A DNA stretch of 64,000 nucleotides from Bilabrum cf. latius (GCA_965178125.1 OZ237754.1:806001-870000), one strand, 5' to 3'; shown: positions 1-64,000, counted from the first letter of the stretch. A program made the numbers and translations. The notes: a model not told the origin generated them from the letters alone.

Positions 1-1405
1 AGGGGTGGCAAAAGGCGCACCGCCGTCCTGGCCCTGGCCAAACTGGCGGGGCCCGCCAGCCCCGCGATCCCCGGAGCGGACACACGGCCCGATAGACGGA
101 CCGTCTGGCTGTGCGCCGGCCTGCGCATTACCCTGGTGTTGACCTGGAGGACTGTTCCCCGGGTGCCCGCGAGGAGCCACGCGTCCACGCACCCGGACCC
201 GGCCACGGCCTGGGCGGCGGCGCGCGCCGGGCTCGGCTGCTGCTGCGGGGACCGTGTGACGAGTGCGAGCTGGTCCGGAGGCGGCTGGGGGCACTTGCCC
301 GCCTGCAGGGCGGTCACAGCTTCCCACGGCAGCAGCGGAGCCTCCCCCGGGCTCGCAACCCAGTGGGGAGCCCTGCAGGTTGCAACCGGCACGTCCACGG
401 TGCGGCCCGGCCGCGCGACCGAAGGGATGGTCAGTGTGGTCGCGATCCGATCCGCGGTGCACCACGCCGCGAGCCGGCCCTCCACAGAGGCGGCCATGAC
501 CACGAGGCACGGCTGCAGCTGGGCGGGGCCCCTTGTTCCCTAGGGGAGCACCTGCGGAACTACCGCTGCACTAACGGCCACTGTGCGCGGCGCCAATCGG
601 AACCCGTCGTTGTCTGCTGGATCGACTTCGGGGGCAAGCTGGCAGCCCTTGGCAGTGGCCGAGGCAGGCCCCAGCCCCAGCATGAGCACCTTCGGCTGGG
701 GGGCGGACTGCTGCGCCTCGGGTCCTGCAGAAGGCGGCGGCATGTCTGTGTCTCGGTGGTGTGACGAGTGCGGCGGCTGCCACAGCATGAGGAGCGTGCC
801 GGCCGAGGCCCACCGCCAGCGGGCGGGGGGGCACGGGGTGTGAGCGATGCCGGGAGTGTCCGCCCGGCCGACGCACACATCAACATCTGCGACGAGGACG
901 ATGCGGCGCGATTAAAGTGCGTGAAAAATGTCGGTCAGTGCGAGGAGGTGGCACTGCCAGTGTCGTCGCGGGGAATCGCGTAAAAAAGTAGGTGCGCAGC
1001 AGCAATCTACGCCGAATCGCTGGGGCGGAGCTCGTTCATGGTCATCTGCACCTAAACCAAGTTCAACACGAGTTAGTGCATAGGTGCTTGTATTGCTCTC
1101 TTACGTTCTCTGGTTGCCACACGCAGCATGTGCTCCACGAGCAAGGGGTATCCGCGGTCCGTGCCATCCTCTAGTTGCAAAATAGTATCAGGGCCGGCTT
1201 CAGCCAAGCTCGACCCATTTTCAAGTCCCACCCTCTGCACCGAGCGGATAAACCCAGTTCCGCCTTGTGTCTTGTTTCGCTTAGCGGCACGTTCGTCCCC
1301 GCCTGGGGTACCGGCGGCCCGCTTACTCCCAATTACTGCGACTCCACCGCCGGGAGTCTTGGGCAGTTTATGAATACTTCCACCTGGAGCGGATATTTCA
1401 TCCAT
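1..1405 (-). CDS. 5' part of a spliced gene running off the window; possible beta-propeller (Nup133-like, speculative)
   Basis: ATG at 1405. Probable intron 1052-1104 (GTAAGA...CACTAAC...TTTAG); the second junction is unresolved. The frame from ~885 to 1 is open if TAG 540-542 is read as sense. RWASAGTLLMLW and VVMAASVEGRLAAW loosely resemble recalled Nup133 N-terminal strands. Confidence 0.45.
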
Positions 1406-1597
1406 GTCACAGTCCTCTTAGTGGGCTTGGCTGGCAATGTCTTCAAAGATAGCTCGCGTTGCGTGAAAACTCCAAAGCAATACTCAGAAGAGCGGTAGCG
1501 ACAACCGAGCAAACAATTGTATGCACGGGATTAAGATGTGCTGCGAGGGTCAATCCAGCCCTAGTTGCCGTTTACGCCGCACTCTGCTTTTTTACTA

Positions 1598-1620
1598 GGG
1601 TGAAGGTTCGTCAATCCGGA
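1598..1620 (+). repeat. Left terminal inverted repeat of the transposon
   Basis: Exact reverse complement of 4293-4315. A degenerate second copy (GGCTCGTCAAGTCGGA) follows at 1622-1637. Confidence 0.93.
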
Positions 1621-1863
1621 TGGCTCGTCAAGTCGGAATGGGCATTCAAACTGCAATTCGCGTGTAGCTCGCCGAATTTTCGCTAAGTGAGAACAGTAAT
1701 CACTCAGCAAAAAGTTCTTGAAACATTTAAACAAAAGGCTCGATGTGAGTGTATTGCAGATATCGTAAACGCGCGTGCGAGGTGGCGATGGAACCCCAAG
1801 TGGTTCCCAAGCGACGCCCAAAAAAGCGCCAAATTCGAGCTTTTTATCCTGGTTTTGAGCCAG

Positions 1864-3807
1864 ATGAATAGTCAATAGGATGCTCTATCCCATCTGAAAG
1901 CACGGGGTCTGGACATTCCATCTTCGACTGCCTCTGACTGGGTGAAGAAGGCAGCATCCGGACAAACGGTCGGTGCGAGAGGCGGTTCAAATCCGACATT
2001 GCCTAGGGAAGCAGAGGAATAGCTGGAGCTTCTCATTTCGGAGCTGAATAGATCAGGTGTTCATCCACATCCAGACTTCATCATTTCTTTCGCTAACTAT
2101 TGGCAAGACCTGTATATGAAGAAAGCGTTCCCCCGTCGCAAGTACGACAAGCTGTGTCGTGGCTGGCTCAAGGGATTCAAGAAGCGGTTCAAGATTTCTG
2201 CGCGGCGTAATGAGAACTACTAGCCAGAACGATTCCTAGTTAGGGCTAGCAGCGTCAGGGAGCTGTTCGCCATCCTGCGCCGCCTATTCAAGACGTTCAA
2301 GATCCAACTGCGCCGTCAAGTGGTCGTGTGCAATGAGTCCGGGTTCCAGTGCTGTGCTGCAGTTACAGCAGGTCTTGTCTCAACAGGGGCTCCATCATCT
2401 TCATCATCATCAAGCAGTAGCTCGGCTGCTTCCGGGGGAGCATCAAATCACCCCGAGGCTAGCGCTTGGAGGCCAACTGCCAAGGATTGCAACGCCGTCG
2501 AGTACGGAACGAGGCACACCACCACGCTGCTGTGTGCGTTGGATGCAGACGGCAAGCATGTGTGTAGCATCTACATCACAAAGGGCAAACACCGTGACGC
2601 CATTCCCCCTCCCACTGTGAGCGAGATCTCCAAGAAGGACCCGGAGGTGCTCCGGCATGGGCGCGACCTCCTCCGCTCGTCACCCAAGGCGTTCATCAAC
2701 AGCAAGCTCTGGCGCGACTTCATCGAGAAGTTGGTGTGGAATCTTGACAACCACTAGGGGCGGTAGGCAAACGAATGGTCCATCCTAATCACAGACGGAC
2801 ACTCGGCACATTACGACTTGGACACCATCGCCTGGGCCTTTGCCCACCGCCTCATCATTGTGACGATCCCCCCTCACTCCTCGGCAGAACTGCAGGTAGA
2901 GGACGTTTCGGTATTCAAGCCGCTCAAGACAGAGTTTCGAAAGCTGGTGACCACGTACACTACAAGCATTCCGGAATTCTACGCGAACAAGGACTGGACG
3001 CCAAGGGCAGTGGCGTACGCCCTCGCCAACATCTTGCGACCAAGTGGGGACAAGCCCGCCGGGCATGTCGTACACAGTGGCTTCGCGCACTGCGGCCTGT
3101 GGGACTACGATTCAGACACCCCTCTGCATGAAATTAACATCAAGAAGCGCATTGCGGAGTGTAAGGGCCGTGAAGAACACATGAAGCTGGGTCGGAAGAG
3201 GAAGCGCCAGCCGGCGCAGAGGCACTGGGAGGCACGCGAGGAGGAGAGCGGAAAAGTCCTAGAAGCCATGGATGGGTCAGACATCGGGAAGCAGACTTTG
3301 ATTGCGTCGTCGAGGGGAAAGAAACATGCGGGGGAGCAGTTCGAGAAGGTCAAGAACGATGCAGTGGAGCGAGCTACCAAACGCCTGCGATCCACCCAGC
3401 CGGGGGGCCGCCGAGACCCCCTGGAGCAGGAGCGGCAAGGGCGACCGCAGGACACGCGCGTGTACTGGAACTCAAAGCAGCTGGACACGTGGGCAAAGAC
3501 AAAGGTATCAGCTATGATTGCAGCTGCAGGTACTTCAATTGGAGCCACGCGATCCGTGCTTGCCTCAGTTGGCAAGGTCGTTGGGGCTCTCGGTACCTTT
3601 ATGGAGGTCACCAGTTCCAAGGATGCAACCGAGGAAGATAATGACAACGCTTTCATGGCTCTGACGGACCAAATAAGCATGATGGAGTCTGTCTCGGCGA
3701 CCGCATCATCTGCATGTGATGAACTGGAGAAGGCCCGGGCAGCTGCCAGCGAGCAGAAGCCACGCCCGCTGCAGATCGAAGATGAGGCCACAGGTGGAAG
3801 CTCCTGA
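1864..3807 (+). CDS. CENP-B-type HTH plus DDE_1 transposase (~647 aa with TAG=Gln; start uncertain)
   Basis: One frame with TAG at 1876, 2020, 2221, 2755 and 2764, ending TGA at 3805. Motifs: LPREAEE*LELLI, GWLKGFKKRF, VCNESGF, ILITDGHSAH and IPPHSSAELQVEDVSVFKPLK, with 35 residues between the last two Asp. Confidence 0.85.
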
Positions 3808-4292
3808 GCTCGCTATTTTTTCCAAGCAACTAGAAGCATGATTTAAAACTTTGTTTTATCCCAATCATGCGGTTCTCTTTGCCTATACCTAATTTTTCCG
3901 AGAGTAAATCGACAAGTTGCAGTTCGGCACAGCGGTCCGAATCGTGGCCGGACTCGCCATTCCGCGATGATATCCGTTCTTAGCATGCCAGCCATCGAAA
4001 GATATTTACCACACCATAAAGCTAACACTTCAGCAACAGCATGTGCGCGGCGGCAAAATACCGAACTCATTGCTCGTGGTGTAGTTGCAGCGTTCCGGAT
4101 TGATGAGCCACCGATTTTTGGGGTGCACAGAGCACTAACTTCACGTCAAGGTTACTAGTCACATACTCAAAGATTTCCGAAACAAGATGCACTTTTTGGA
4201 ACTTCAATCGGTGTAGAATTCATCTAGAAAAACGGAAACATATGACATGGTGTTCTCGGCCAGATTTCCCGCTCGAAGTTCGGCGGCTCCAG

Positions 4293-4315
4293 TCCGGATT
4301 GACGAACCTTCACCC
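4293..4315 (-). repeat. Right terminal inverted repeat of the transposon
   Basis: TCCGGATTGACGAACCTTCACCC followed by TA. A degenerate internal copy TCCGGATTGATGAGCC lies at 4094-4109. Confidence 0.93.
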
Positions 4316-4601
4316 TAAAGCGATGTGTGTGGGTGTGATGACGAGCACGGCAGCGGCACCGCTGTGCTGGTGACTGCATGCATGAAGCATTCTGGTGCAT
4401 TCAGCATCCAGGGCAGCGTGTTCCAATGGACAATCTAACTTCTACTCAACACATCAAGGCTGCCCTCCAGCCCCACCGACCGAAGCATACCAACAATCCC
4501 CCCAACCCCCCCCTCTCAGCTCCCTACGAAGCGACAAGATCCAACCCCCACCGCCACACTACATCAAATCCCCCTACACCCAAAAGGTAACCCTCTTTCC
4601 A

Positions 4602-6361: not shown

Positions 6362-9300
6362 ATGAAGAGCGGCCGGCTAGATCTGCTCGATCTGAATGAA
6401 GGGGAGCATTACTTTGAGGAGTATGACGGGGAGTACTAGTACGTCTCCCGAACAGATGCTGAGGGCACCGTGCGACGAGGAGCGGATGCAGTAGCCGCGA
6501 GTGTCACGGAGCATGCGTACGAACCAGGAACGTTTCACGTAGCCTCCAAAGCCATTTACTTTGAACCCGAGTCTGCATACCTTCCAATCCTCCGATTCCG
6601 GTTCGCGGACATGCCAAGACCCCCTGCATCGGTCCTGCGGCTAAGCCAAGGCCCGTAGGCGGCGTTGGGCGAGCGCAAGTCGGCGCAGGCGGGATCCACT
6701 CTATTGTTTCAGGCGACACAAGCCACTCGGATCAAGCAAGACGGTCGCATTGGACCTCACTAGACTGTGGTGCTCGATAGCGGCCCGGACGCCGCGGGCT
6801 CGAGCCTGGGCAAGGACATTGCCGACGAGCCCGCGCTGGTGGAAGGGAGGGGAGTGGCCATCCTGAGGGCCGGGCACGCCGGACTCGATACCGACAAAGC
6901 AGCAAGACTAGAGGACCTGCTCCTGCTCTGCTTCCGCGCCGCGCACTGCCGTGCGCTGCACCGGCTGCAGGGTGCCTCTGGCCGGCCGCCCACGGAAGAC
7001 GAGTTGCTGGGTCCTCTGGTCCGGAGGCGGTGGGAGCTGCCTCCCCCTGGGTATGCGGGGGCAACGGGAGGTGGTGCGGCGGGTGCATCGCACGGTGGTG
7101 CTATCCTCGCGCCCGGTGAGCCCGGCGGGCCGTCATCCTTGTCATCTTCATCTTCAGGGATGGGCGCCCCGACCCTGTCGGCGGGGGAGTCCATGCTGCC
7201 CCAGGGCCCCTGGCCCGTGCTGCGGGCGCGTCCACTGGTGGACCAGGACTGCCGCTTGTTCCTCAGCGACAGGGCGCTGTACCTGAGGCCGTCCGCCGTG
7301 AACTGCCCCAGGGCGGGGGTCCCCGACCCGGTGCAGTCCATTGCGGTGGCGGCGGCGGCGGGAGAGACGGCGCTCCTTGGACCGGTGCCCCAGCTGGGTG
7401 CACTGCACGGTAGTGAAACCGGCGGGAGCGGGGCCCCGCTGGGCGCACCCTTGGGCGTACCGGGGTCGATCGGCACACCTGCAGGGTCGGGAAACCGGAA
7501 CCGTCACCGCGACCTCCGTGCTAGGCTGGATGACCCGGGTGCATCGCACGATGCCGTAAGGGCGGGGGAGCTGGCCGCGTTGGAGGGCGAGCGGGCGTCT
7601 TCTGGTGGTGCGGGCTCGGGGGCTATGGAAGCGGGGTCGGGGGGTGCGGGGGGCCAGTGGGGGGGGGCGAAGCTCCGTGTGGGGTGGGAGAACGTTCGCG
7701 TGCTTCGGCGGCGCACGCGCATGCGGAGGGACGTGGGTCTAGAGCTGGAGCTGCTGCCCAGCTCCAGGGGCGGCGCGGGATCCGGTGGGATGGGCACGGG
7801 CATGGGCATGGGCATGGTTGAAGGGACAGGTATGGAGCCGGGGGTAGGGTCTTTTGCAGCCACGGCCACGGGCACGGGCACGGGGACAGGGACCGGTGGT
7901 GGCAGTGGGTCGAACGGGCAAGGGGGAAGGCGCGGCCGGGAGGGGCTGAAGGAGATCGGCGGCGCCGCGGGAGGTTCCGCAGGGGAGTCCTCGTCACTGT
8001 CCAAAGGGGGGCGGCGGCGCCGTGGCAGCAGCCGCTACTCGGATTCGGAATCGGACGAGCCGACGGCCGCGGCACGGGCCGAGTAGCAGCTCCTGCGGAA
8101 CCCATGGCTCCTGCAGCCGCGCGGCGCCGCCGTCTTGCTCGTGTTCCGCAGCCGTGGGGAGCGGGAGCGCGCCTTGGCAGCGATCGCGGGGCAGTGCCCT
8201 GGCGTCTTGGTCGCGCCGGCGCGCCGGTCCGTGGCGGAGGCCCGCTGGCTCCGGGCCGCCCAGGGGGCCTGGCGGCAGGGTGCCCTGGGCACGTTCGAGT
8301 ACCTCGCGGTGCTCAACTCCGCGGCGGGTCGGTCGAGGTGCGACCTGCAGCAGTACCCCGTGTTCCCCTGGGTCATCCGGGACTACGAGAGCTACGAGCT
8401 GGACCTGGAGGCCGAGGGAGCCGCGTGGCTGCGTGACCTGGCGGTGCCCATCGGGGCCATGAACGAGGCGAGGCTGGGGAAGTTTCGGGAGAAGCTGGAG
8501 AGCCTGCGGGTGGACGGGGGTGTGACGAGTGAGGGGCCGGGGCACGGCGAGCAGCCGGGAGGAAGGAAGGAAGGCGCCGGGCCTGCCGGTCCTAGGGGCA
8601 GCCCCGCGCGGCCGGGCCCAGGGAACAAGAGTGGCAAGCCGCACCAGGAGCCCCTGCACAAGCACGGGCTCTACCGCTCGCACTACAGCAACCAGTCCTA
8701 CGTGATTTTCTACCTGGCCCGCGTAATGCCCGAGCACATGCTGCGGCTGCAGTCGGGCAGCTTCGACGCGCCCGACCGAATGTTCCGCGGGGTTCGCCAG
8801 GCCTGGGAGTCGGTGACGGGCACCAACGGGATGGACGTCAAGGAGCTGGTGCCCGAGTTCTACGAGCCTGGCACGGCGGGCCGGTTCCTCGTGAACTCCA
8901 GGGGGATCCGCTTCGGCGAGCTGTCGGACGGGAGCACCGTGGGGGACGCCGAGCTGCCCCCCTGGGCGCTCGACGCCTCTGATTTCGTGCTGCAGTGCCG
9001 CAGGGCGCTGGAGCACCCGGCGTGCTGCAGTACGATGCACCGATGGATCGACCTGGTGTTCGGGAGCCGGCAACGGGGCAGGGCCGCCGACCTCGCCGAC
9101 AACCTGTTCGAGCCGGACAGCTACGAGGGCGCCGTGGACCTGGACCGGATTTCTGATCCGATCCGCAGGGAACAAGCCAGGGCAGTGCTCGCGGAGCTGG
9201 GCCAGACGCCCTCTCAGCTGTTCCTCAGCGACCACCCCCATTGGGTGGGCCCCCAGATCGGGGGGGTCATAGGATAGCCGGATGCATCCGGTGCAGCGGG

Positions 9301-12300
9301 GGCGGGCGGGGATCAGGCGCTGGATGAGGCAGTGGCGGTGAATCGGAGCAGTGACGTCACTGCGGGCGGGCCGTCTAGCGGTGCAGGCGCCTCGGACGGT
9401 GCAGGCGATGCACCCGCGCCGCGGGCGGCGGACTCATTCCGAGCTGCATCCAATGCATATGATGCAACCGCTACGGCCGGCAGCACCGACCAGCGCACCG
9501 ACGGTCGCGAAGATGAAGATACGAAGGCTACCGAGGAACACATCATCGCCTGGAAGGAAGCACAGTCCCAGTCGTGGTCCGCCTCCAAGGCCGTGGAGGA
9601 TGCAGCCAGGTCGATCAAGCGGTCCGCACCGCAGCACGTGCTGCGGTTCCATCGACTCTGGGCCAGAAAGGTGCCCGACCCAGACGAGGAGATACGGGTG
9701 GACGAGGGTGTGACGAGTGAGGATGCCTCTCGAGAAGAGGCCTCGTCCTCTCCCGTGCCGATGGCCCAGACGGGTGGGATGGCAGGGGAAGGCGAGGGCC
9801 CTGGTGCTGGTGCTGGTGCTGGTGCTGGAGCAGGTGCGTCGGCGGGGTCTGGTTCCGGGCCCGACTCGCCTCGGCTGCTCCGGGGCTCCTCTGTGGGCAC
9901 CAGCGTCCGAAGCGGGTCTCCTGCGGTGTCCCAGGGAACAGCAAGGGAGGGAGAGGGGAGGCGGAAGGGGGGTGCCGCGTCCCCCAGCAAGCGGGGGTCA
10001 GCCAGGGGCCGTGACCCCGCAGAGGGGGTGCTCCGCAGGGACATCGAGGAGTCGGCAGGGGCGTGCGACGTGGTGGCGGCAGGGCCGGGGACGTGGCCGG
10101 GCACGGTGCGTCTGCACGGCGGTCCGGTGGAGGCGGTTTGCGCCTCGGAGCTGCAGCCGAGCCGGTGCGTTGTGACTCTGGGTGCTGACGGGCTGCACAG
10201 GCGGTGTGGGGTGGCCACTGCGGAACCTCTTGCTCTCGCCGCGGCGCCGTTCCGGGGGTATGATGAGGCTCTCATGCCTTCGGGGTCATCATCTTCATCT
10301 TCCAAAAAAGCTGCTGCGGGCAAGGGCAGAGACACAGCTGGAAGTGCTGCAATGCCGAAGCCTCTCGCGACCAAGACAGCTTCACAAGGCAAAGGCACAG
10401 ACAAAGGCGCCATCAGTACCATGGCCAGCTACCCCACTGCGGGGGCACCCCTCGGGGGTCAGGACTTCCTGCTGGCGGGGTCGAGCCGGGGGTCGGTGTG
10501 CCTCGTGCGGCTGGCGCGGGGCTCGCCTGTCAGCAGAGTGCAGATTGGGGCACACAAAGGCCGCGTGCTGTCGTGCGCTGCTCCCAGGACTGCGCTCCTG
10601 CGGCCCTCCGGAGAAGAGGACCAAGAGGCCCTGGCGGCTGGGTCGGGGTCGGGCAGGGGCGGCGGGAGAGGGGGCAAGGGAGCCGGTGAGCGTCTTCGGC
10701 GGATGTCGTCACTGAAGGCGGTTCGAAGGGCTGCCGAAGAAGCCGGAGCGAACGTTCTCTGCACGGCGGGGGCAGACGGGGACGTGTGTCTGTTCGCGGT
10801 GGGGGCCGCTGGCCAGGGGGGTGCGCCTGCCGCCGGGGAGCAGGAAGAGGAACTGGCCGGTGGGGTAGGTGCATTGCACGGGGGTGCAGGGGATGCATCG
10901 CTGCCGTCGCTGCATCTGCTTTGCAGGATAGAGGCCAGGGCAGTTCTGGCCGCGCTGGATCAGGTCGAGCAGGGGCAAGGGCAAGGGCAAGGACAAGGGC
11001 AAGGGCAAGGGCAATGGCAAGGGGGAGGGAAGGGACGGAGGGCGGGCGATTGGCCCCCCGCCGTGCCTGCTGGTCTCTCCTCAATCAGTGGAGCTGGACT
11101 TGAAGACGATGACCAAGAGGATGGCGGTGCCAGCGGTATCAAAGGCAAAGGGGTGGACCTATCCGCACTGCTGGGACCCACCACCTCCTCCTCCTCCGCG
11201 GCAAGCCCGCTCCGACCTCGCTAGTCCGGGGAGAAATCCAACGGCAGTAAGAAAGACGGCGTAAAGAAGAAGCTGGAGCTCGGCTCGGAATCGAATTCCA
11301 AGCGATCGAGGCCGAGTGCAACGCCAGTGCCAGTGCCCGCAACCGCCGTGGCCTTGTCCCAGGCAGCTGACCGGTTGGCCGTGGGCTTCGGGGACGGGTC
11401 TGTTCTGACCGTGCGTCTGCGTGCGGTGGGAAGCAAGGCAGGGGGAAAGAAGGGCAAAGGGAAGGGCAAGGGCAGCGGCAGCAGCACCCCAAGGACAGGT
11501 GCAGCCGGTGCAGGTGAGCTCAAGGCCTTCCGAGCTAGGAGTGGACGGGACCTGTGCGGCCTGGCGGACGGGATGCAGGTCGCGTGGGCTGCGGACGCAG
11601 CCAGGGAACAAGGGTCTGGAACAGCGCAGGTGCCGGTGGGTAGACCGGAGCTTGGTGGCCGCTCGGGGATCGTCTGGATGCAATGGGTGGAGCTGGAGAC
11701 ACAAGAAGGGGGCAGCACAGGGGAGGACGACGATGGTGGAGACGGGGGTGAGCGGGGTGCGGGTCTGCTGGACGCGGATGACAGCGTCTGGGACGGGTAC
11801 GGGGACGGGGGTGAGATGCCTGCGGGAGTAGGGGGTTCTGAGGTGGGTGCAGGGGGCAAGGGGGGACATGAAGAGGAGGAGGATGGGGGTGGTGGGACCT
11901 AGGGAACAAGCGGCGAGGGAGCCAAGGCGCGGCTGCTTGCTCTCTCCTCTAGCGGGGAGCTGGCTGTATATGACGCTGACGCTGTGTGCTTGGCCGTGTT
12001 CGCGCTGGGCCACCGGTGCACCTGCGCAGCGCTGGCACCGGGCGGGAGGGTGCTGCTCGCGGGCGGGGAACAAGGATCGCTGGCGGCGTACGATGCGTTT
12101 GCGGCCGTGCGGGCCGCGAATGGCGGCAGTCGTGGAGTGGGTCGCGATGGTTCGGCGCCGGGGACGACTGCGGCATTGGTTGCGCCGCCCGTGCTGCCGC
12201 TCGAGGTGCTGAGCCGAGCGCTGCGTCCGGGCCGCGAAGGTGTGACGAGTGCTTCTAATGGTGTGACGAGTGTTATTGATTATGGGGAGTTCAAAGAGGA

Positions 12301-18800: not shown

Positions 18801-20061
18801 TCTTTTTGCTGGCCCCGTCCTTGGCCTCTGGCACGCACTGCATCAGCCCCGCGAGGCACTCAACGGACATATGGGGGCTCCTCTCGCACGCCGCCAGCAG
18901 GCACCGCGCGAGGTCCTGGTGGTAGAGTGCCAGCATGGCGGTGAGCTCGTTGGCCATGCGGTGTGACGAGTACAGGGGCAGGAGCACCTCGCGGAGGAGG
19001 GGGGGGATGGGGCCCTCGCGAGAACCCCCGGGGGACGACGGGGGACCTACACTCTCCGATGGGGGCAGGCCCAGCAGGATGGACCGGAGCATCCGCAGGA
19101 GCCCGCAGGTCCCGGGGGCGCCGCGAATCGTTGGTTCCGCTGCGTAGTTCCGCAGCGCGGCGCCGATCTGGGCGCGGATCCTGGCCCTCTGGTTCCGGAG
19201 GCACCAGTATCCCCAGCGAAGGTTCGCTTCGGCTTCGGCGACCTCGGGCCCCGAGGCGGCGCCTGCGAGCCTGCGGACGAGAGCGGGGCCCAGAGCGGCC
19301 GGGGCCTCCGCTTCGAAGGCCCCGCGGTCGAACTCGGGGAAATGTCTCGCCAGCCGGCACACCTCCTGCGCCGCCATGCGCCACTCCACCCCCGGGCTGG
19401 GGTCCGCCGGGGGGGGGTCGCACCGGGAGGGGGTCGGCAGCGCGATGCGCTTGGAGGGGCGCTCGTCGCCGCCTGCTGCCATGGGCTGGGCGCCAGGGCC
19501 GGCTGGGCCGTGGCGGCTGCTCACATGTTCGGTGCGTGGTACACGTGAAGGCCCTGCTGGTTTGCTACTCGTGCTGTGCTGTGTTCCGTTGCCAGATGTG
19601 TCCGAGGCAGCTGGGGCAGGTCCAGCCGTGGAGGGCGGGGGCGGCATAGCCTCGCTAGCTCGCGATCCGGGAGCACGAGCCAGCGTACTTTCAATTGTTA
19701 CCTGTACCTTGGTTGCAGATCCTTTCAGCTCGCCTTGCTTGCTCCGGCGTGGCGGCGGACCGATCGAAGCCCACGGACCGGGCAGCGCATTCGGTGGCGG
19801 AGACTGCGCACCATAATACCAAATGGACAGGTGCCTGTAAACATTGGGCGTGAAATCCAACTCTCGTAGCTGAGCTCGCCTTGTCCACACCAAAACATCA
19901 CGTGCGGCCCGTAAATGGTGAGGTTTGATTCCTCCCCTGAGGGGAGCTTGCGGCTTGCCCTTTGGCAGCGAGGAGCTGCGCGAATTTGCGACAGATCCAT
20001 CATTGCCGGTGGCCGCTTGCAGTCTTGCGATCAACACCTGTTCGGTGAGATCGCCCTCCAT
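15880..20061 (-). CDS. Fusion of a PP2A B56(B')-like domain and a PDK1-like AGC Ser/Thr kinase (~1393 aa)
   Basis: Three ORF-track ORFs are in one frame, joined by TAG at 18415 and 17833; TGA stop. B56-like: VLLPLY, LALYHQDLARCL, SEHASISQRALRLF, SWN. Kinase: LGKGAFSTV, FAVK, GDLKPEN, DFG, GTAGYMAPE, DAWALG. Confidence 0.85.
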
Positions 20062-20280
20062 GCGCAAAGGCGAACAATTAACTCAACAGTGTCTGTCCAT
20101 TTGCGGACGCAGAAAGGACTCGGAGCTCCGAATCCACGCCGGCACGATCCAGACCAGCTCGACAACTTTGGTCCGAAAATTAAGATTCTCTTGCTTGCTT
20201 CGTTCGAAGTTGACACGTCGGCGATCTACGTAAAGACAACTTTTCACGTCTCCCAACTGTCAGGTCCAGCGTGGATCTCT

Positions 20281-36234: not shown

Positions 36235-36305
<71 letters not shown>

Positions 36306-41210: not shown

Positions 41211-41283
41211 GTGAGGAGCAGACGTGCTGGTGCTGCCCGAGGCAGAGCTAGAGGAGGCGTGAGTGACGAGCAGACGTGCTGGT
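41176..41283. repeat. 52-bp tandem duplication spanning the BBS1 stop codon
   Basis: CTGCCCGAGGCAGAGCTAGAGGAGGCGTGAGTGASGAGCAGACGTGCTGGT occurs at 41181 and 41233. Confidence 0.9.
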
Positions 41284-41369
41284 ATTCATGGCACAGGTCT
41301 GTTCTAATTAAAAAGGATAGCAAATGAACATGACCTGCAGTTCAAGAGTGGCGGTCAGTGCGCTGCTCA

Positions 41370-42776: not shown

Positions 42777-42911
42777 GATACACACAGCAAATTGGGGTGT
42801 TTCGCGGCAAGGAATGGCACGGATCGGACCGATAAGCCAGATTCGTCACATGATGCCGCGGACGGCAACTGCGGGAGACGCTGAAGACAGTGCCTGCAGA
42901 CAGCTTTGCAA

Positions 42912-45900: not shown

Positions 45901-48900
45901 CATGATACACCGCAGCTTGGACGTGCGGCCGGCCTGCAGCCCGAAGAGCCGCTACGGCTGAACGTGTCCTTGCATCGGCCCCGGTACACCCCGGTGCACC
46001 ACGACCTCTACTTCCGGTTTAATACGGAGATCCACGGGAGCGCCCCCGGGGACAGCACGGCCGCGGACTACCTGAGGCACCTGATGGGGTCACCCCTGGT
46101 GCGGGAGGGGGGTCGGGTGCTGCCCCCCGACCGGCTGCCCTGCAGGCAGGAGCACAAGGAGGATCTAGCCGCTGCACTGGGGCAATTCCAGGCATCGCAG
46201 GCGCAGCAGCGCAGGGAACAACGCGATCGTGCGATGCAGTTGCGGCGGGAGCGCTGGGAGTGGGTGAGGAAGCAGGAGGAGGAGGGGTACAGGGCGAGGG
46301 TCGAGTCGGCGCGCAGGGCCCGTGAGGCGCTGGAGAACACGCGCAGGGAACAACGAGAGGCGCAGGCGGAGCTGCGGCGGGAAGAGGAGGCGGGGGATGC
46401 GCTGCAGCAACGGATTCGAGGTGGAGATTCTGGGTCTGGGTCGGGGTCTGAGTCGGCGCAGGCGGCTGGGTCTGGGTCTGGGTCTGGCGCTGGGTCGGGG
46501 TCTGGGTCTGGGTCGGGTGCGGGGTCTGTATCTGGCAGCAGCATGCTTGATGGGCTGCTTGACGGGCTGTTCGGGTCTCGGAGCGGCAGTGGTGCTGGTG
46601 CTGGTGCTGGTGCTGGTTCCCGGGAACAAGGAGAAGACGCTGACGGCCGGAGCCCTGAAGAGCTGGCGGCACTGCTGCAAGAGGCAGCGGGCAGGCTGCG
46701 CCGTGCCCGGGCGCGGGCGGACAGCGCGGCAAGGCGAACAGAGCAGGCGGCGCAACTGAGCGAGGTGGCCGAGCGCGCCGTGCGGATGCCTCCGCCAGAG
46801 GAACTGCCCTCTGCCGAAGAGTACAGCGAGGCCCTGGACCTCTGCGTCAGCGAGGTGGGGCAGGCCGCGGGGCTGGACCCCGGCATGGTGGAGCATTTGT
46901 TCCTCAGGGCGGTGGGGCAGGGAAGGACGCCTTGGCTGCTGCCAACGCCGCGGGAAATCCTGAGACTGCCGGCGAGGACGACGAGGACGGTGGCGGACGC
47001 CTCCGCGAGAGTTCTCCGGATCAATCGCGGAAAGTTCCTGGAAAGGCACGTGCAGAACGCCAGGCCCCCGGCGCTGGCCCGGTTCGCTGCGCACCACGGG
47101 ATCGCCGTTGGCGGTGTGACGAGCGAAGAAGCTCCATCTTCATCTTCATTTTCGTCGGACCTCGGGTCGACGGTCGCCGAGCGAGCCGCCACGGCCGTGC
47201 TGCTGCAGGGCGGCGAGGAGGAGGACGCCGAGCGTGCGCGGCTTTGGGGACCCGGAGCCGCAATGGACGCCGCCTACGCCGCGAGGAAAGGGGCCCCCGG
47301 GGGCTGGGCGGGGTTCTCTCCCGAACGTTCGCCGGGACTGGGGCTGCTGGAGAAGTATTTCGGCGGTCCCGGGGACTGCCTCGACGAGGACAGCGACGAG
47401 GACGAGGACGAGGACGAGGATGAAAATGAAGGTGACGGTGGCGGTGCTGCTGCTGCGGCCGGGATGCGGGGTGGGGGTCGTAAAGCGGACTCCGCCCAAG
47501 GAACAGTGCGTCGGACTCGCGCACCGGGTGCATCGCACGGTGGTGCATCCGGCCCCAAGTCGGTGATGGGCCTGGGGCCAGCCGACGTGGAGGGCTGGGA
47601 CGTCCGGATGGGCTACGGTCCGTTCTTTCAGGAATACAGGGTGGGAGACCGGCTGGTAGCATTCACGCTCCTGGACGTGCTTCCCACTCGCGTTTGTAGC
47701 GTGTACTTTGTGTGGGACCCCGACCTCCGGGGGATGCAGCTGGGGACGGTGTCCGGACTGCGTGAGCTGGCGTTCATCTGGCGGATGTCCGCATTCTCGC
47801 CTGCCCTGCGGCACCTGGACCTGAATTTCTACGTGCCTTCGTGCTCCAAGATGAACTACAAGCGGCAGTGGCGCAGCCAGGACCTCATGTGTCCCGAGAC
47901 CAACCGATTCGTGGACATGGAGGCGGGGCTGCATCGCATTGCAGCGACGCAGGGGACCCAGTACACGCTCGCCGATGAGAAGGGGGACCCGCTCCCGTGG
48001 GAGCCGCCAGGGTACAAGGCCTGGCTTGAGGCGCGAGGGAACAGCGGGGGCGAGGGAACAGCGGGGGAGGGAGAGGCCGCGGGCGCAGAGGGCCCCAGGT
48101 CCGGTGCCGGCGCGGGCCTAGGGTGTGACGAGTGCGACGGGGCTCACGGCGACCCGCGCGAGCACTCGTCACACGTGAAGCTGGCCGGGTTTGAGGACCT
48201 TCTGGAGGCCCAGCGAACGTTCCGTGCCTCCAGGGCGGAGGATGCCGCGGCACTGCCTGACGCTGGTGGTGTGGGCGATGGAGAGGGAGAGGGAGAGGGA
48301 GAGGGTACGAGGGGTCCTGGGTCGGGGGACCTGGTGGAGCGGGAGGCACTGCGGTCAGTGTGGCTGGGTTTGATGGGGAGGGCGGTGTGGCTGGGGAGCC
48401 TGGAGGGGGCCTTCCGCACGCGGGACGCAGCCGCCACCAGCCTGCTGCAGCCGAGGCTGCCCCGCCTGCCCCCGGATGCGACCCCGCAGGACGAAGCGAT
48501 GCTTGAGACGCTGCGGCAGCAGCACCTGCAGCTGATCCGAGTGGCCGCGGGGTCGGATTTCTCGCTCCGAGTCCTCGCCCGCCGGGGCCGGCTGGTGCTC
48601 CACCCCTCTTCCGGAGGGGAAGGAGCAGCCGCTGTCGCCTCCTATATGGGGGGCATCAGTCCACCGTGCGCGGTTGCAATACGAGGGGCTAGCGAGACCT
48701 CCCTGAGGCAAGCCCTTGAAGCGCACAGGGTGTGGCACGACAAGGGGAGCGCCCCTTTGTCCGGGCCTGGATCCGAGGTCACCGAGAGGGTGGCCAAACA
48801 GACAAGCAGAGACGTCATCGTGCGCGTGCCGGAGGTGCAAGAGTACGAGCCCAAGCCCGGTCCCGTGCCCTACACGGCCGTGGACCGTGCCGCCTTGCAG

Positions 48901-49779
48901 GCCCTCTGGGAGATTGCACCTCACGGGTTAGCCACGCCCGAGCGGCTGGAGGTCGCTGCGGCCAGGGCCGTCATGCAGCTGAGGCAGGCCAGGGGGGAGC
49001 AAGGCAGCCCAGGGAACAAGGGATCGGAGCAGGCCGCGGGGGCCGCCGCCGCGCCTGCCGCTGCCAAGCTCGATTTCAGCCCCTCAGACGCGTTCGACAG
49101 CACCCCCCCGCCCGTCCCAGGCCTGACGGATATCCTCAGCTCCAGTTTCGCTCGCCAGCGGTTGTTCTTTGCCCCCGAATGGAGGCCGGCGTGGGTTCCG
49201 AACCCGGGCCCCTCCCACCGTCGCCTTGCGAGCAGGCCCGACCAGTACCTCCTGCACTGCGAGGTGAATTCCCTGGCGAGGCAGAAGATGGAGCTGACCA
49301 CGCCCGAGTACGTGCGGTGGATGGGCCCCGAGACGGCCGTGACCGCCGTGCACGAGCCCAGGGTGCTGCTGTACTTTGGCGGCAAGAAGCTGCGGGAGCT
49401 GGAGGAGAAGAGGGAGCTGCAGATGAAGAAGGAGAGGGAGGCGCAGGAGAGGCTGATGAGGGAGCAGATGGAGGCCATGGGGATGACAGGGGGGCCTGCT
49501 GGAGGCGCAGAGGGGCAAGGAGGCGGTGGTTCCGGTGGGGGCTTGCCACCGGGGGCGTTGCCAGGGTTTCCGGCTGCCTTTGCTGGCTTTGGTATGCCCG
49601 GAAGTCCCGGCGGCTTTGGCTTTGGCGGGCCTGGCGGCAGCAACGGAGGTGGAAGCGATATGGGGGCGGAAGAAGCTATGCTGCAGGCCATTTTACAGCA
49701 GTCGAAACGGGAGTACGAGGCCGCCATGGCGGCATCCAAGTCGGAGCAAGGAGGTGGCGCAAGTGGCGGCAGTGATTGA
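42912..49779 (+). CDS. ATE1: Arginyl-tRNA--protein transferase ATE1, greatly expanded (~2255 aa); intron 43028-43127
   Basis: Exon 1 encodes CSYC. Exon 2 has DYDFLLDRGWMRSG...CCPNLVIRL (ATE_N), then GYGPFFQEY...LDVLPTRVCSVYFVWDPD...LGTVSGLRE...FYVPSCSKMNYK...DLMCP (ATE_C). TAG at 43579, 44338, 44977 and 45091; TGA stop. Confidence 0.88.
45502..45795 (+). repeat. (GGTGCA)n microsatellite encoding poly-(Gly-Ala) within ATE1
   Basis: More than 40 hexamer units with two short interruptions. Confidence 0.95.
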
Positions 49780-53224: not shown

Positions 53225-53346
53225 GGCTCCGTGAGGCGCCTGCGCGCAGGGTCTCACCCGGAAGACCCGACTCGACAAAGGTGCACGCTATCTAGGAAGT
53301 CTGGATTGCTGAGGCGTGCTCGCGCTTCCTGCCGAGCAGCACAATC

Positions 53347-56544: not shown

Positions 56545-56592
<48 letters not shown>

Positions 56593-56832: not shown

Positions 56833-59800
56833 TCACGCCTCTCCTGCAGCGCCGCGCTCCGCCGCCCGCCGGACCAGCGCCCTGCCCTCTGCCCTTGCGA
56901 CCTCCGCGGGCAAGTGCTCCGTGCTCGCACTCAACGGGATGCTCACCGTGGCCGACCCCAGGCGCCCGTCCTCGCTCGTCACACGCACCACGATAGGCGC
57001 CGTGGCCGAAGGGCTGGCGGCTTCCGACTCGGTCGCGATGCGGGAGGGCGCCGCGCCTGCGGAACCGCCCCGGGCTCCGGTTCCGCTCCCGTGCACCTCC
57101 AGCAGCCGGCGCCGCGCATCCGGCGGGCTGGCGGCGTCCAGCGTGGATCTGATAAAGCACCGCAGCAGGCCGTAGTACGTTGTTCCCTGGCTGCTCCAGG
57201 CCGCCCCCTGGTCCGCGGGGGACCCCGAGTGCGTGGCGAGGACCGTCCCGTGCCCCGAGAGCACCTCGAACCGCAGTGCAGTGCCACTCACGGGGGACAG
57301 GGCCCCGTTCTCGTCCACGATCTCGGCCCGCAGCATGGCCACGTCCTGACCGTCTGCTACCAGCGCGCTGCCTGTGCCGGTCGTGGGGCTGGGCGCGTCC
57401 ACCCTCAGCCTCAGACCCGCTGGGCTTCCCGGGGACAGCCGAGTCGCGGTTGCAACCACCCTGCCCTCGGAGTCCCTGGCCACCGCGGTGAGGTTGCCCG
57501 CCTCGTATGGGATAGAGTCGAAGGTCGCAGTGCCGAAGTAGGCCATGGGCTGGGCCTCCCCGCCCTTGGGCTGCTTGCCGTTGACGAGCAGTGAGACAGA
57601 GTGCGCGTTGGTGTAAGCGTGGATGACCCGGGTGGGCTTGCCCTTGGACTGCCCCTGCGCCGGCTCCCACGTCTCCGGGATGGAGACCTCGTATTTCAAT
57701 TCCGGGTCCACGGGTGGCCGTCCCGCGTCTGCGGTGCCGTTGATGGCCGCGAGCCACCATGCCCTTACCCAGGCGGCTGACTCCTTGGCGAACCCCGCCA
57801 CGTCAGCGATGACCCCCCTAGCCTTGGAGGTCTGCGGCCATCCTCTCGACTCGCCAAGGTAGCTGAAGCTGCGGGACGGTGCGGTGCGGTGCAGTACAGT
57901 GCAGTGCACGTAGGGATAAATCATGGCCGTACGCAGGCAAGGGGGCGAAGGAGATCTGGCGCGATGCATCGCATGTAACGAGGAACGACAGGGAGTGAGG
58001 TTGCAAGCTACATGGACTGGACACGGAACAGGCGCGGGCAGCAGGACGGTCAGCAAATCACCCCCCCCCCCGCCTTCCCTTCCTTTCTTTTTCTTGCTCT
58101 CTCTCTCACCCGCTCCACACGAAGGTGCCGCTCATGAAAGGCCTCCCGTCGCTCTCGTTCACCTGAGTGGCAGTGCACTGCGATATCTCGTCGTTGTAGA
58201 ATACACCGGTGGTGTTGTCCCCCGTGTACGTGCCCTGACAGTCCACACGGCACCCCTGCTTGCATCCGCTCGGTCTTGGGTTAGGACACGCGTCGTAGTC
58301 CACGCCCCTCTGGGATAGGCATGAGCAGCACTCGGTGGCCAGCGTAGGCTTGCCGGGGTAGTGCGCGTGGAAATCGTCAAACGTGCTCCCCGACTTGTGC
58401 GAAAACCCCTGCACGTCCAGGAATGCCGTGGAGAGGTTGGTCCCGTGGTGGTTCTGCGTGACTGGCCGCGAGGGGTCAACGGACAGGATGGCCTCCCGGA
58501 AGTACTGCGCGCTCGACTCGTTGTTGCAGCCCACCTCGCTGCGGTGACAAAAAGAGATGGGAAAAAGGGATCGATGTGTGCAAAACCACACACCGGCCGC
58601 GCGATGGAGCGGCCTCGTGCGGCACGAGGGCGCGCTCGGAGGATAGCATGGCATAGATGCATTGGAGCGCGCTGGCTCTCTACCCTGCCGCGGGCCTGCC
58701 CATCGAAGGTTCTCTCACTTGCAAAGGCTCCACAGAAACACAGATGCCCTGTTCCGGTCCCTCACCACCATGTCCCGGATGTCCTGGAGCTCCTGCGCCA
58801 CGGTTTCTTTGGTGGTGCCCCCCTGCTGTTGGTGACCCCCGTAGTCCCGGTTTTCGTCCATGACCACCACTCCCAGGGCGTCGGTGACGTCCAGGCGAGC
58901 CTGCACGGGCGGGTTGTGAGCCATCCTCCATGCGTTCCCGCCCACGGACCTCAGGGCTTGGGCCCTGAACAAGTTCACCCGGTCGGGGACGGCAGACCCC
59001 ACCCCCCCGAAGTTGCTGTGGTCGCAGAAGCCCCTCAGCTTCACGTGGCGCCCGTTCACGAAGAGTCCCTAGTCTGCCGTGAAGTCCAGGCGCCGGAACC
59101 CTATGCTCGAGTTTGTTGCGTCCTGCAGCTGGCCGTTAAGCTCCACTGCGGTCTCCAGCGTGTACAGCGCGGGGACCTGCACGGTCCAGGGAACAATGGA
59201 AGGCACGCTCGCGCGCGCCTCCAGCACGGCGGTGCCCCCGCCGGGACTCGGAGCCGGAACTCCCCCACCGCTGGAGCGGAAGCTCGCCACCAGCCTTCCT
59301 TCCGAGTCGAAGAGCCTGTGCGCGCTCGTGGCTGTGCCTGTGCCGGTGCCACGGCCCTGCCCTTGGGCAGCTGCTCCGGCGGCAGTAGCAGAATCCTCGT
59401 CGTTACGCACCGTCACCTGCACCGTCAAGTCGGCGCTGGCCGGGGCTCGCGGCGCCGCGCGATCCGGGTCCGCAGCGGAACCGCCCAGCAGGCTGATGTT
59501 CTGGGAGCGGGCAAAGACCCCCTCGCCCAGGACCCCAAGGTGCATCGCCTTGCGGGCCCGACGCAGGCTGTAATGCCGGAACAGCCCGCCGCCCTCCCGC
59601 CACCACCCGTCTCCGTACGACGCATCCACGTACACGGCCAGCACGTTCTCTTGCGCGGCGCCGGTTCCGTAGTGCAGCCCGGTGACGTTGTCGATGCGGA
59701 GGGCAAATGACGTGTACCCCTGCATGTGGGTCGGTCCCAGCTGCTAGCCGTTGAGCCAGGCGGTGGTCTCGTGGAAGGAGCCCTCGAAGAAGACCCACAG

Positions 59801-60458: not shown

Positions 60459-61348
60459 GCCTGCTCGTGTCTTTATCAGAGTGCAAACTGCAGTGGCGTC
60501 GCGTCTGGTCGCGTCAAAACGAATAGTGCACGCAACCACCCCGGCCGGACACATATCGATTGTTGAGTGCCCGTTGCACCCTGAAATTGCTGGGGGTATG
60601 CGGCTGTATCGAGCGCGTCTACCAAGGCAGCATCGGGCGGTGAGTGGCGCAGCATGGCACGTTGAAGTGAGCATGTACTGAATCCTCCACGAGACACCCT
60701 GACCCTTCAACCAAACGGGTATATGAGGCGTGCTGGTTTACGACCGTCGCGGTGCACCACGTCGGACCACGGATATCGGCTGGGGTGTAATTCAACGCAG
60801 GGCAGGATAGGATAGGCACGCGCTGCGAAGAAGCATCCGCCAGGATAGATCTACTGTCTGCCTGCTCCCACACACGGACGGCGGTCGATAGCCTTGGTAG
60901 ACGAGCGCAGTACGGTATCGAATCATCCATTTGGGGAAAGGCCGGGGTGGTGTTGAGTGACAGCGCGGCCGGTTTCATGGGGGCGGGCGAGAGTCCGTCT
61001 CTCCCAGACTTCGCTGGCCCGGGGGGAACCTTCACTGGCCAAAGTCGGTGGACACTGGAGAATGCGGCTTCACGTTCACATTCAGTTGTATTTTGGTCCA
61101 GACTTTTGTGTAGCTAGTAGAGTCCAAGCAGCTTGAGGATTATCTTCCTACATTGACCATTCGATTCTAGCGACCAAGTACTAGATCTACTTGTGAGCGA
61201 TGTGCCCAGTCCACCAATAGCACTGGAACGAGGACGTATCCCCGCCAGATGCTGGCATTCCCGATGCAAGTAGCTACCAAGCTCTTTCAGCGCGGTATAA
61301 ATGTGATTGACTGTTTTTTTTCTTCGCAGCTTGCTCTTTCTGCCGAAG

Positions 61349-64000
61349 ATGAGCGCTGCAGCCGGAGGCGGAGATGTCAGGGCTGCGTACTCTACTTTCG
61401 GTCTACAGCCTGGAGCCGGGGAAGCACAAATCAGCAGAGCTTTCCGCAAGCTCGCCTTTAAATATCACCCGGATAAAGCGGGTGTAAGCAGTAGTGCTCG
61501 CATGCAACGGCTGAGCGCAATGAAGCAGCGGCTTCTCGATGCAGAGACACGGCTCGCAAGGGGCGAAGACCTGGAGCAAGATACGGGGAGTGGCGACTCT
61601 GAAGATGATGATGACGACGATATCTGGATTCATGAAGAGTCGGGGACAAGGCTTAAGCTCTCAGTGGGGGAAACGCCCGGGGCCACGCTGATGCGACAGA
61701 TTCGACAGATGTGGGCAAAAGCAGATTCTATCAGTGCTGGGAAGCTTCGCGCGCTTTAGAGCATGCAGACAGAAGGCGGTAGACAGTTTTAGATCCTGCT
61801 ACGCGATTGGCATACCGAGGCTAAAAAATTCATCCGGACAGGACCCTGGAACGCCACCCATCCGGCCGTGCGACCTCGATGCGACGACTCAGAGCCTGCA
61901 GCATCTCTCATCATGCCTGCGCTGGTGGCCTTAAGCGAAACGATCCCACTGGGAGACTTCATTGCCACCCTACGGCCGAGCATGTGCGAAGACCGGCCCA
62001 AGGAGGGCGATCCTTCGCGCGACGCCGAGGCGTGGGAGGACGATGCGCTGGCTGTGCTGGACGCCATGGAGGCCGACGGGGAGCCGGAGTCGAGGGACTG
62101 GGACAAGTGGGCTAGGTCTGCGCAGCGGATGGAGCGGCTGCTCGAGTCACTATCACACGCGCGCAACATCCGCGGCGATCAATGCAAGACGTGTGAGTGG
62201 CAGCACCGGCATACGGTGGCCAGAGCCCTTCTACTGCGAGGCGATACGGAGCGGTCCGCATTGCTGGTGGCCAAAGATGTGCAGCACACACTTGCGGCTC
62301 GCAAGCTGGTCGTTCGATCACTGCTTCGTTTGCTGCGGGACATCGCGCAGGAAGCCTTCGATGCCATGCATCCTGACGCCAGTCCCCTGGTGGAATGCTT
62401 GGTGCGTGTTGGTGCAGCGGAGCCGCCACGCCCCACGCCGCCAATGGCGGATGCCCCTGCATCTGGTGGGGACAGATCTTCTGGTGCTCCTGATGGGGAC
62501 AGAGCTGCTGGTGCCTCTAGTGGGGACAGCACTGCTGGTGGGGCGGCTGCACCAGGGCCCGCCTCAGGGGCAGGAGCGGACCCAACTCCGCCCTCTGCTT
62601 CGACCGACCAATCGACTGCACACATGAAACCGCATGATTTAGCCGTGGAGTAGGCCAAGCAAGTAGCCACCTGTCTCCGGGGCTTGGTGGTTGGGCATGC
62701 ACTTGGTGATGTCGGGGCACTGGCTCTTCGAGCTGCCGACGCAATCCTGAAATATGTGCGAGAGTCGGCGAGAGCAAAGCAGCGGCAGGAACTCAAGCTG
62801 CTGTTCGACCGTGGACTGGGACGGGAGGATCACGCGGCCATGGGGAAGGGCATCTGCATGTTGGCAACACCTGCCGATCACGCAGTGCTACAAGAGGCAC
62901 TCTTGCCTTACCTGCGCCGGGACGTGTATAATAGCCCTGCCATCTCCGCGACCAGACGAGCAGCCATCGACGTGGGCAGGGTGTCATGCGGCCTAGCTGG
63001 CCAGGAGTGGAGGATCGGGGCGCGCCCTAAAGCAGCAGCTGGAAAGGCAGCTGCTCCACAGGCTACGGCTGCCACAATCAGCGGGGCTGACGCCATGACC
63101 TTGCTCGGAGGCGCCATGCTACGCGTAGGACCTTTTCAGGATGCCAGGCCGGCGCTGGAACCAGCTGTTCATCTGCTGTGGGGCAAGGTGCTAGCTGCTT
63201 CTGGAGGCATGGATCAGGCGCTTCTGGATCAGGATTGGGGTGCCATCACGCAGCAGCTGACCCCTAGAGGTATGCTTTCCAGTTGGGACAAGGCAATGGA
63301 GAAAATGGCACGCATGGACTCCGTTGGAACTGACCATCCTGCTGACCTCACACAAGCTGGAGAGTGCAACAGCTAGCTCCTGCCAACCTGTGACGAGCTA
63401 GTGCCACCACTCGACACCAAAGCCAACCAGATGGGACTGCCCAAGCTCTCCTTCAAAGGAATCAGTATAAGGCAGGTGCGCCGAATCGAAAAGGTCATCC
63501 TGAGGCGCGTGAGCACTTCTGTTGGAGAGAGGACTGCTGCCGACGGTGGCGCTGCTACTGGTGGATGCAGTGCTGATGCTAGCAAGAGCAAGCCATCCGG
63601 CGGCACTAGGTCTAAAGCAAAAGCCGATGCCAGCACTTCACGCTGCTCTGCGTGCAGAGAGGAGTGGGGTAACCTTGAGGTGGCCTAGGCGCTGCTGGAC
63701 CTGACGATGGCCGCTAACAGCTTGGACGAGGTGGTCGGGGCTTACGTGAATGCAATGCTGTGGCTGTTACGGGAGCTATGTATCGCGTCTCAGGACGAGA
63801 GCTATGACCCGAGACGTAGGACTGGCTCGAGTGGGAGACCGAGTGGTGACGATGCCCCAGGACCGGTGGGTGCTGCCGGTAGTGCCGAGGGTAGCGCTGC
63901 ATCAGTCAAAGGGGCTCAAGCTCCAGGAAGCGATGGTGAATCTGGAGCAGCAGATGCTTCCGAACTCGCTGCTTCAGAAGGCTCCGATGAGGGCTGGTTC
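61349..64000 (+). CDS. DnaJ-domain protein, 3' end outside the window
   Basis: AYSTFGL...ISRAFRKLAFKYHPDK. The frame is open to the window end through TAG at 61757, 61790, 62651, 63374 and 63686. Confidence 0.8.

Follow-up and report, generated by a model that had tools for sequence, protein, structure and literature searches.

The exact genome-wide words over coding sequence that are known, to our knowledge, come from bacteria and serve there as marks for DNA uptake, recombination or the orientation of the chromosome. The uptake signal sequences (USS) of Pasteurellaceae and the DNA uptake sequences (DUS) of Neisseriaceae are the uptake words of competent bacteria. HIP1 (GCGATCGC) of cyanobacteria is a palindrome and has no strand polarity. 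Minisatellite cores are stretches of 10-15 bp common to dispersed tandem arrays. Introners and introns derived from miniature inverted-repeat transposable elements (MITEs) in Micromonas, Aureococcus and others are described in excerpts of published reports as 50 to 1000 nt long, alike along their whole length and spliced out (PMC4540971, PMC3879977, PMC9860276). Here we describe a short exact word, with the 9-nt core TGTGACGAG, that recurs in and around the genes of a 64,000-nt stretch of Bilabrum cf. latius (GCA_965178125.1 OZ237754.1:806001-870000). We call this whole stretch the window and count positions 1-64,000 from its first letter.

The 9-mer TGTGACGAG occurs exactly 31 times in the window (20 on the plus and 11 on the minus strand), at the 31 starts counted in a preliminary description and nowhere else. 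Dinucleotide shuffles (n=100) contained a mean of 0.51 copies and at most 3, in line with the earlier estimate of under one copy per 64 kb. Microsatellites aside, the word is the commonest 9- to 13-mer in the window. The aligned copies give the consensus GG-TGTGACGAG-TG-[A/C]-G, and 16/31 are perfect copies of the 13-mer GGTGTGACGAGTG. In an all-against-all blastn comparison of 809-nt flanks, the sequence common to the copies ended at about 15 nt, overlapping flanks and microsatellites aside. The sequence surveyed for the word comprised the window and about 38 kb of related metagenome contigs.

The enrichment persists under codon-aware null models, for which we used 16 putative protein-coding sequences (CDS; 48.8 kb) that hold 20 sense and 7 antisense copies. 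A synonymous-codon shuffle left on average 1.39 sense copies (maximum 5) and 0.10 antisense copies (maximum 1). The corresponding means were 0.17 and 0.09 for a codon shuffle, and 0.66 and 0.32 for a first-order codon Markov model fitted to the real CDS. The refuting test proposed in the preliminary description therefore leaves the enrichment standing. The core is also kept exact. One-mismatch variants of the core number 25, with about 14 expected by chance and 31 exact copies present, and of the 32 matches to the 13-mer with up to two mismatches only 2 have an altered core. There is thus no cloud of decayed copies, even though the flanks are unique.

The word is a nucleic-acid-level signal over coding sequence and not a peptide motif. 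Its commonest translation includes the tripeptide VTS, which occurs 18 times against 4.1 expected, the top ratio of any three-letter tripeptide. A single codon string, GTGACGAG[T/C], encodes 16/18 of these, although its AGT makes up only 9% of Ser codons; VTS from other codons occurs twice against 4.1 expected. GVTS[A/E/D] was found in 0/323 homologous proteins retrieved (147,465 residues). The claim in the preliminary description that the word cannot be a peptide motif is borne out by this codon usage and by the synonymous shuffle, which leaves 1.4 of the 20 sense copies.

Gene strand was assigned from long open reading frames (ORFs), periodicity of GC content at third codon positions (GC3) and Pfam matches. 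Relative to the genes, 22 copies are sense and 7 antisense; two (255 and 760) lie where no gene strand was assigned. The sense share of 22/29 assignable copies is significant (two-sided p=0.008), as it is with tandem pairs merged (19 sense to 7 antisense, 19/26; p=0.03) and among assignable perfect 13-mers (14/15; p=0.001). A filter does not explain the bias: each of the three antisense frames is open, and stop filtering alone would make sense copies the minority. Compared with a model of stop filtering only (sense share 0.33-0.4), the merged count of 19/26 has one-sided p values of 3e-5 to 7e-4. A symmetric DNA process, such as a methylation site or unbiased repair, is unsupported because it would give at least as many antisense as sense copies, the antisense frames being open. 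The polarity flips with gene direction inside the 64-kb window, and it therefore tracks transcription and not replication.

This polarity separates the word from two of the bacterial systems. Chi and the FtsK-orienting sequences (KOPS) are likewise exact oligomers with strand-polarised over-representation, but their polarity tracks replication, whereas the window word flips with the direction of each gene. HIP1 resembles it as a hyper-abundant word within genes whose function is unsettled; however, the window word is asymmetric and sense-biased. We rejected a palindromic word of the HIP1 type on the same grounds (22 sense vs 7 antisense).

Reading frame is skewed as well. Sixteen of the 22 sense copies lie in the frame xxT GTG ACG AGx, which reads (G)VTS[E/A/D], and four lie in the CDE frame (TGT GAC GAG). 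The VTS frame is favoured largely through filtering, because it is the only TGA-free sense frame when TGAG trails the word; sense copies that lack a second TGA are divided 10 VTS to 4 CDE. The antisense copies fall in one frame in 6/7 cases, TCG TCA CA (SSH/SSQ). One sense copy (28036) supplies the TGA stop of a leucine-rich repeat (LRR) gene, and its tandem duplicate lies just past that stop. The preliminary description had called the word independent of frame and strand and had placed it at the TGA stop of LRMDA. All six frames do occur, but 16/31 copies share one frame and sense copies outnumber antisense ones by 22 to 7; LRMDA appears in none of the six frames, while the copy at 28036 does end a Pfam-supported LRR ORF (...FIVDEDL). 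The proposal of a DNA-level signal overprinted on coding sequence likewise holds for the nucleic-acid level, as the synonymous shuffle indicates, and fails for strand independence.

Orthologue comparison covered two genes, BBS1 and BEACH. The BBS1 copy encodes EGVTSA within a conserved segment, where the closest relative found (P0121, 66% identical) has TDASCA with no indel, and other BBS1 proteins have residues similar to TDASCA at this position. The copy thus consists of four adjacent residue replacements with length unchanged, and from this one-for-one exchange it follows that at least one copy arose by substitution. In BEACH the word opens a low-complexity loop insert, and the closest relative (P0271, 65% identical) has a different insert without GVTS. 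The word is therefore absent from the nearest orthologue in 2/2 comparisons, and as judged from these two alignments copy positions are not conserved.

The spacing and orientation of the copies revealed five close pairs in addition to the sense bias. Three are tandem, with spacings of 18, 21 and 55 nt, and two are inverted, with spacings of 41 and 78 nt. This clustering exceeds what uniform placement of 31 sites would give (p=0.004 for five or more gaps no longer than 80 nt).

In several respects the word is like USS and DUS. It is an exact word of 9-13 nt, hugely over-represented, also in coding sequence (31 copies against 0.5, surviving codon-aware nulls), placed in tolerant frames and protein segments, common to relatives, and its positions turn over. 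It differs in that the host is eukaryotic, the polarity tracks transcription and the data give no conceivable link to DNA uptake. We therefore rejected a bacterial uptake signal, which needs a competent bacterium as host, since these genes are eukaryotic and have spliceosomal introns. The mechanistic likeness to bacterial uptake, Chi or HIP1 sequences drawn in the preliminary description falls on this host and on the flip of polarity with gene strand.

The word is not confined to this contig. Its sites are unchanged in contigs of runs from three studies, and on this basis an assembly artefact was rejected; it also occurs in unrelated metagenome contigs. A scan of metagenome contigs for the 15-mer gave at least 120 stretches, mostly single background matches. 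Eight loci with one shared contig-name prefix (L010, L011, L026, L048, L059, L081, L093 and L111; 33 kb) stand out with 24 copies of the 9-mer, which have the flanks of the window copies; these loci were chosen for carrying the word, so that their density is biased upward. Two loci with another prefix (L040 and L061) have one copy each. The word-bearing loci have a GC content of 55-61%, below that of the window, and encode, among others, a P-type ATPase and an AMP-binding enzyme. They form a second, unlinked contig set and showed no similarity to the window in blastn and tblastx searches. Their long ORFs need TAG/TAA readthrough. All translated ORFs over a copy (9/9) read (G)VTS, although these ORFs were selected for being the longest frames free of TGA, a choice that favours (G)VTS. 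One locus (L010) carries arrays of 3 and 4 units, repeating every 15 nt, that encode (GVTSD)n, and another (L011) has one pair 15 nt apart. Scans of viral and prokaryote collections gave background only, with single hits in 80/80 and 79/80 rows among the matches listed.

A further contig, L046:1-5075, is over its whole length an imperfect palindrome with arms mirrored end to end, and is probably an assembly or amplification artefact. Its two word copies are not independent. We had considered them as transposon ends and rejected this, given the palindrome.

Contigs of three runs that we presume to be RNA (X5-X7) contain GT..AG-bounded joined forms of two introns, and the DNA run X1 has the same introns unspliced. 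The X5-X7 contigs listed cover 7/14 copies in 26000-45590 (27981, 31994, 34048, 37048, 39794, 44838 and 45381) with no gap and no altered letter. Within what contigs reveal, transcripts contain the word with no splicing or editing at these copies. Structured RNA was rejected as an identity: the mean pairing probability is 0.62 for the word, 0.60-0.64 for its flanks and 0.59 for control positions, and no Rfam family matches. A frameshift, readthrough or recoding site was also rejected, the reading frame being continuous across copies.

We tentatively favour the reading that GGTGTGACGAGTG is a lineage-specific cis-acting word. Its reader would be a sequence-specific factor that works with the direction of transcription. 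The likeliest substrates would be the mRNA, with an RNA-binding protein or a guide RNA as candidate readers, and the non-template DNA strand. Copies would arise at tolerant coding positions through clustered point substitutions and local duplication, those with an in-frame TGA would be purged so that mainly the GVTS frame remains, and selection or drive would retain the exact word, with the word and not its position as the target. A linear RNA-binding-protein site of the PUF type (UGUR core) would be a candidate, hinted at by the sense polarity and by the UGUG with which the core begins.

Several observations weigh against a word read along the transcript. Antisense copies are also well above the null (7 vs 0.1 in the synonymous shuffle), and this excess, together with the single frame shared by 6/7 of them, means that the DNA duplex may also be important. 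Among the 16 CDS of the null set, seven have no copy, and the word is therefore not needed by every transcript. The density in coding sequence (27 in 48.8 kb) does not differ significantly from that in the rest (4 in about 15 kb). Close pairs include 10/31 copies, which would fit a purely mutational, self-seeding process as well. Moreover, the gene strands come from ORFs, GC3 periodicity and Pfam and not from annotation, X5-X7 are only presumed to be RNA, and contigs display the dominant form only.

The main rival to a transcription-directed reader is a DNA-level drive without host function, in which biased gene conversion, repair or templated short-patch mutagenesis, coupled to transcription, makes the word from near-matches and selection removes harmful copies. 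It would account for the four residue replacements in BBS1 without length change, the enrichment on both strands, the tandem and inverted pairs, the turnover of positions between relatives and the lack of copies in a transposon with perfect 25-nt terminal inverted repeats (TIRs). However, a symmetric process cannot place 14/15 perfect copies in sense orientation with all antisense frames open. The drive requires a further, transcription-coupled step that no evidence supports, and all-against-all blastn revealed no donor template or flanking homology; we regard it as unlikely. Next comes a 15-nt in-frame cassette, GGTGTGACGAGTGNN (GVTSx), that seeds and spreads like a minisatellite, by slippage and ectopic short-tract copying, into disordered segments where it is tolerated. 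The arrays in L010 and the pair in L011 with their 15-nt period, the window pairs at 18 and 21 nt, the 55-nt tandem duplication and the many copies in low-complexity inserts speak for it. Minisatellite cores likewise are short, common to many loci and able to form tandem arrays, as in L010, but the window copies are mostly single, coding and sense-biased, and at least one came from substitution. The BBS1 copy swaps residues one for one with no insertion, there is no homology past about 15 nt between copies, and slippage accounts for local arrays but not for dispersal to unrelated genes or for the sense bias, which makes the cassette less probable still.

A splicing element, whether an introner end, a U1-binding 5' splice-site mimic or a miniature intron, is largely refuted and very improbable. 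In its favour, the 3' half of 8 copies is GTGAGG or GTGAGT, like the four real donors, and the core GTGTGACGAG begins with GT and ends with AG. Yet RNA-like contigs traverse 7/14 copies without a gap, reading frames and conserved domains run across copies, the four real introns lack the word, 18/31 copies lack GTGAG, and the best-conserved part lies outside the U1 footprint with nothing common downstream. As a 5' splice site the word was rejected because the real donors are GTGAGG or GTGAGA (4/4), only 13/31 copies have GTGAG and none has a junction. Introners too are repeated sequences in sense orientation inside genes of GC-rich protists, but the window word shares only about 15 nt and is exonic and translated; an introner or MITE-derived intron was rejected, as flanks share nothing past the word and 7/14 copies are not spliced. 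A selected peptide G-V-T-S-[E/A/D], such as a site of modification or cleavage, would explain why most copies are in the GVTS frame in both lineages. It is refuted by the codon analysis and barely credible, given the one codon string with rare codons behind 16/18 VTS, the 2 other-codon VTS against 4.1 expected, the copies in CDE, SSH and stop frames and past a stop codon, and the 0/323 homologues with GVTS[AED]. Equally hard to credit is an 'ambush' device that halts frameshifted ribosomes by offering TGA, the sole stop, in both alternative frames. In GGTGTGACGAGTGAG, the +1 and +2 frames do each contain a TGA, and TGA terminates all 16 CDS that were checked. However, off-frame TGAs (237 and 226 in 16,273 codons) are common and slightly under the synonymous-shuffle values of 282 and 242, so nothing selects for them; 18/31 copies lack a second TGA, and many other dicodons would be equally suitable.

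The individual copies are distributed along the whole window. At its left end, a copy with CG-core-TG flanks (255-263, +) reads RVTSA in a plus-strand ORF and LVT in a minus-strand ORF, and a perfect 13-mer follows at 760-768 (+); neither has an assigned gene strand. The FAN-like gene has two perfect sense copies that read GVTSE, at 8521-8529 (+), where a lineage-specific loop insert of the BEACH domain begins, and at 9709-9717 (+). The pair 21 nt apart consists of perfect sense copies at 12241-12249 (+; GVTSA) and 12262-12270 (+; GVTSV). A protein kinase insert between DFG and APE holds a perfect sense copy at 16970-16978 (-; GVTSA), with a sense RVTSD copy 18 nt upstream (16988-16996, -), and an antisense ARH copy with flanks off consensus lies inside the Pkinase domain (17223-17231, +). 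The sense copy at 18113-18121 (-; SVTSA) forms an inverted pair with the antisense copy 78 nt away at 18191-18199 (+; SSHH). Another antisense copy (18962-18970, +; YSSH) lies immediately N-terminal of the B56-like Pfam match, where the coding sequence is strongly periodic.

At the LRR gene, the sense copy at 28036-28044 (-) provides the stop codon of the ORF 28043-28873(-), and the sense copy at 27981-27989 (-), 3' of that stop, belongs to the second unit of a 55-nt tandem duplication. This duplication (27935-28090, -), at the 3' end of the gene, repeats its final codons together with the stop and the word, and in the downstream unit each of the three frames meets a TGA within 17 nt. A sense copy in the CDE frame lies at 31994-32002 (+). 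Three perfect sense copies follow on the minus strand at 34048-34056 (GVTSG), 35437-35445 (GVTSE) and 35584-35592 (GVTSA). Two copies are antisense to the long minus-strand ORF: 36529-36537 (+; HSSQ), in a stretch of weak coding status, and the perfect 13-mer at 37048-37056 (+; HSSH), with a near copy following at 37066. The antisense copy at 37756-37764 (+; YSSQ) is in strongly periodic coding sequence. The perfect sense copy in the conserved BBS1 segment is at 39794-39802 (+; GVTSA), and another occupies the C-terminal tail of a CDK7-like kinase (41485-41493, -; GVTSA).

The right part of the window begins with a perfect sense copy in the CDE frame of the ATE1-like gene (43807-43815, +). Perfect sense copies reading GVTSE lie at 44838-44846 (+) and 45381-45389 (+), and a further sense GVTSE copy at 47115-47123 (+). 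A perfect sense copy in the CDE frame (48124-48132, +) forms an inverted pair with 13-nt arms with the antisense copy 41 nt away (48165-48173, -; HSSH). The last two are sense copies near the C-terminus of a GH2 glycosidase (56975-56983, -; RVTSE) and, in the CDE frame, in a DnaJ-domain gene (63389-63397, +); the latter has flanks off consensus and may be a chance copy.

The genes of the window are eukaryotic, not bacterial. Window GC is about 64%. Pfam matches comprise PP2A-B56, protein kinases, the N and C domains of ATE1, BEACH/FAN, BBS1, a Na/Ca exchanger, GH2 glycosidase domains, DnaJ, LRR, sulfatase and L7/L12; a CDK7-like kinase and spliceosomal introns are also present. TAG is a sense codon in these genes. 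High-GC3 coding frames are broken by single in-frame TAG codons, and ORFs of 800 to 2,391 codons appear once TAG is taken as sense. The 16 putative CDS contain 77 in-frame TAG in about 16,300 codons and zero TAA. Examples of in-frame TAG are at 8084, 17833, 18415, 39705, 42000, 42282, 51407, 54256, 59069 and 59744. Compared with 60 homologues, one TAG site of the CDK7-like kinase aligns to Q (31) or M (24) and another to P (55); two TAG sites in GH2 are variable positions that align to V and S in solved structures. From such alignments, Gln is a plausible meaning of TAG. Partial texts of published reports describe codes with UAR as Gln in a few eukaryotes, including Amoeboaphelidium (PMC5304391, PMC6299283), for which an excerpt of another gives a GC content of about 40% (PMC10608142). 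Protein searches revealed no close hits in this genus, and Amoebophrya is more AT-rich than the window. A role of the word as a signal for TAG decoding was rejected, as there are genes with TAG and without a copy.

Introns are few. Four spliceosomal introns were found, all on the minus strand: 38199-38583 and 42546-42632, from intron-less contigs, and two in the GH2 gene, at about 58539-58717 and about 57871-58107, from homology. All four have GTGAG[G/A] donors (GTGAGG twice, GTGAGA twice) and (C/G)CAG acceptors, and none contains the word. Their GC is below that of the exons. The sole transposon, a pogo-like DNA element (1596-4317) with perfect 25-nt TIRs, carries a DDE_1 transposase ORF (1687-3804) with 5 in-frame TAG. 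It contains no copy, as the preliminary description stated, and its TIRs are unrelated to the word; an identity as a transposon terminal repeat was rejected.

Other features of the window include large low-complexity inserts. In the ATE1-like ORF (43075-49776, +), the N- and C-terminal Pfam domains are about 1,440 residues apart with low-complexity sequence between, including a (GCAGGT)n array (45602-45795) that encodes (GA)n. Similar inserts are found in the BEACH, BBS1 and kinase genes. One stop-free frame (15883-20082, -) spans both the B56-like region and a protein kinase domain. Two genes may lie here, with a spacer that lacks TGA, or TAG 18415 may be a context-dependent stop. The segment 35810-36463 is a high-copy repeat or microsatellite family, where the word depth of DNA run X1 rises about 100-fold (1301 vs about 13) and many contigs end. 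A tRNA scan and an Rfam scan of the window gave no match.

In the literature, 930 papers contain either form of the 9-mer; among the matches listed, it appeared only in unrelated primer and siRNA contexts, and no description of the word or of a comparable eukaryotic phenomenon was found in titles and abstracts. A comparable word in eukaryotic nuclear genes implies an undescribed reader or drive. It is possible, though we hold this with more doubt than the reader itself, that a eukaryotic lineage with a reassigned stop keeps thousands of exact 13-nt copies that are polarised by transcription, re-created at new positions and read on the transcript. If so, the word would be a eukaryotic counterpart of the bacterial genome-wide words, for example a 'self' or quality-control tag for an RNA-binding factor or guide RNA, and a previously undescribed information layer over protein-coding sequence. 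The word distorts the proteins that it runs through, VTS being their most over-represented mixed tripeptide, and it would mislead gene finders and repeat maskers.

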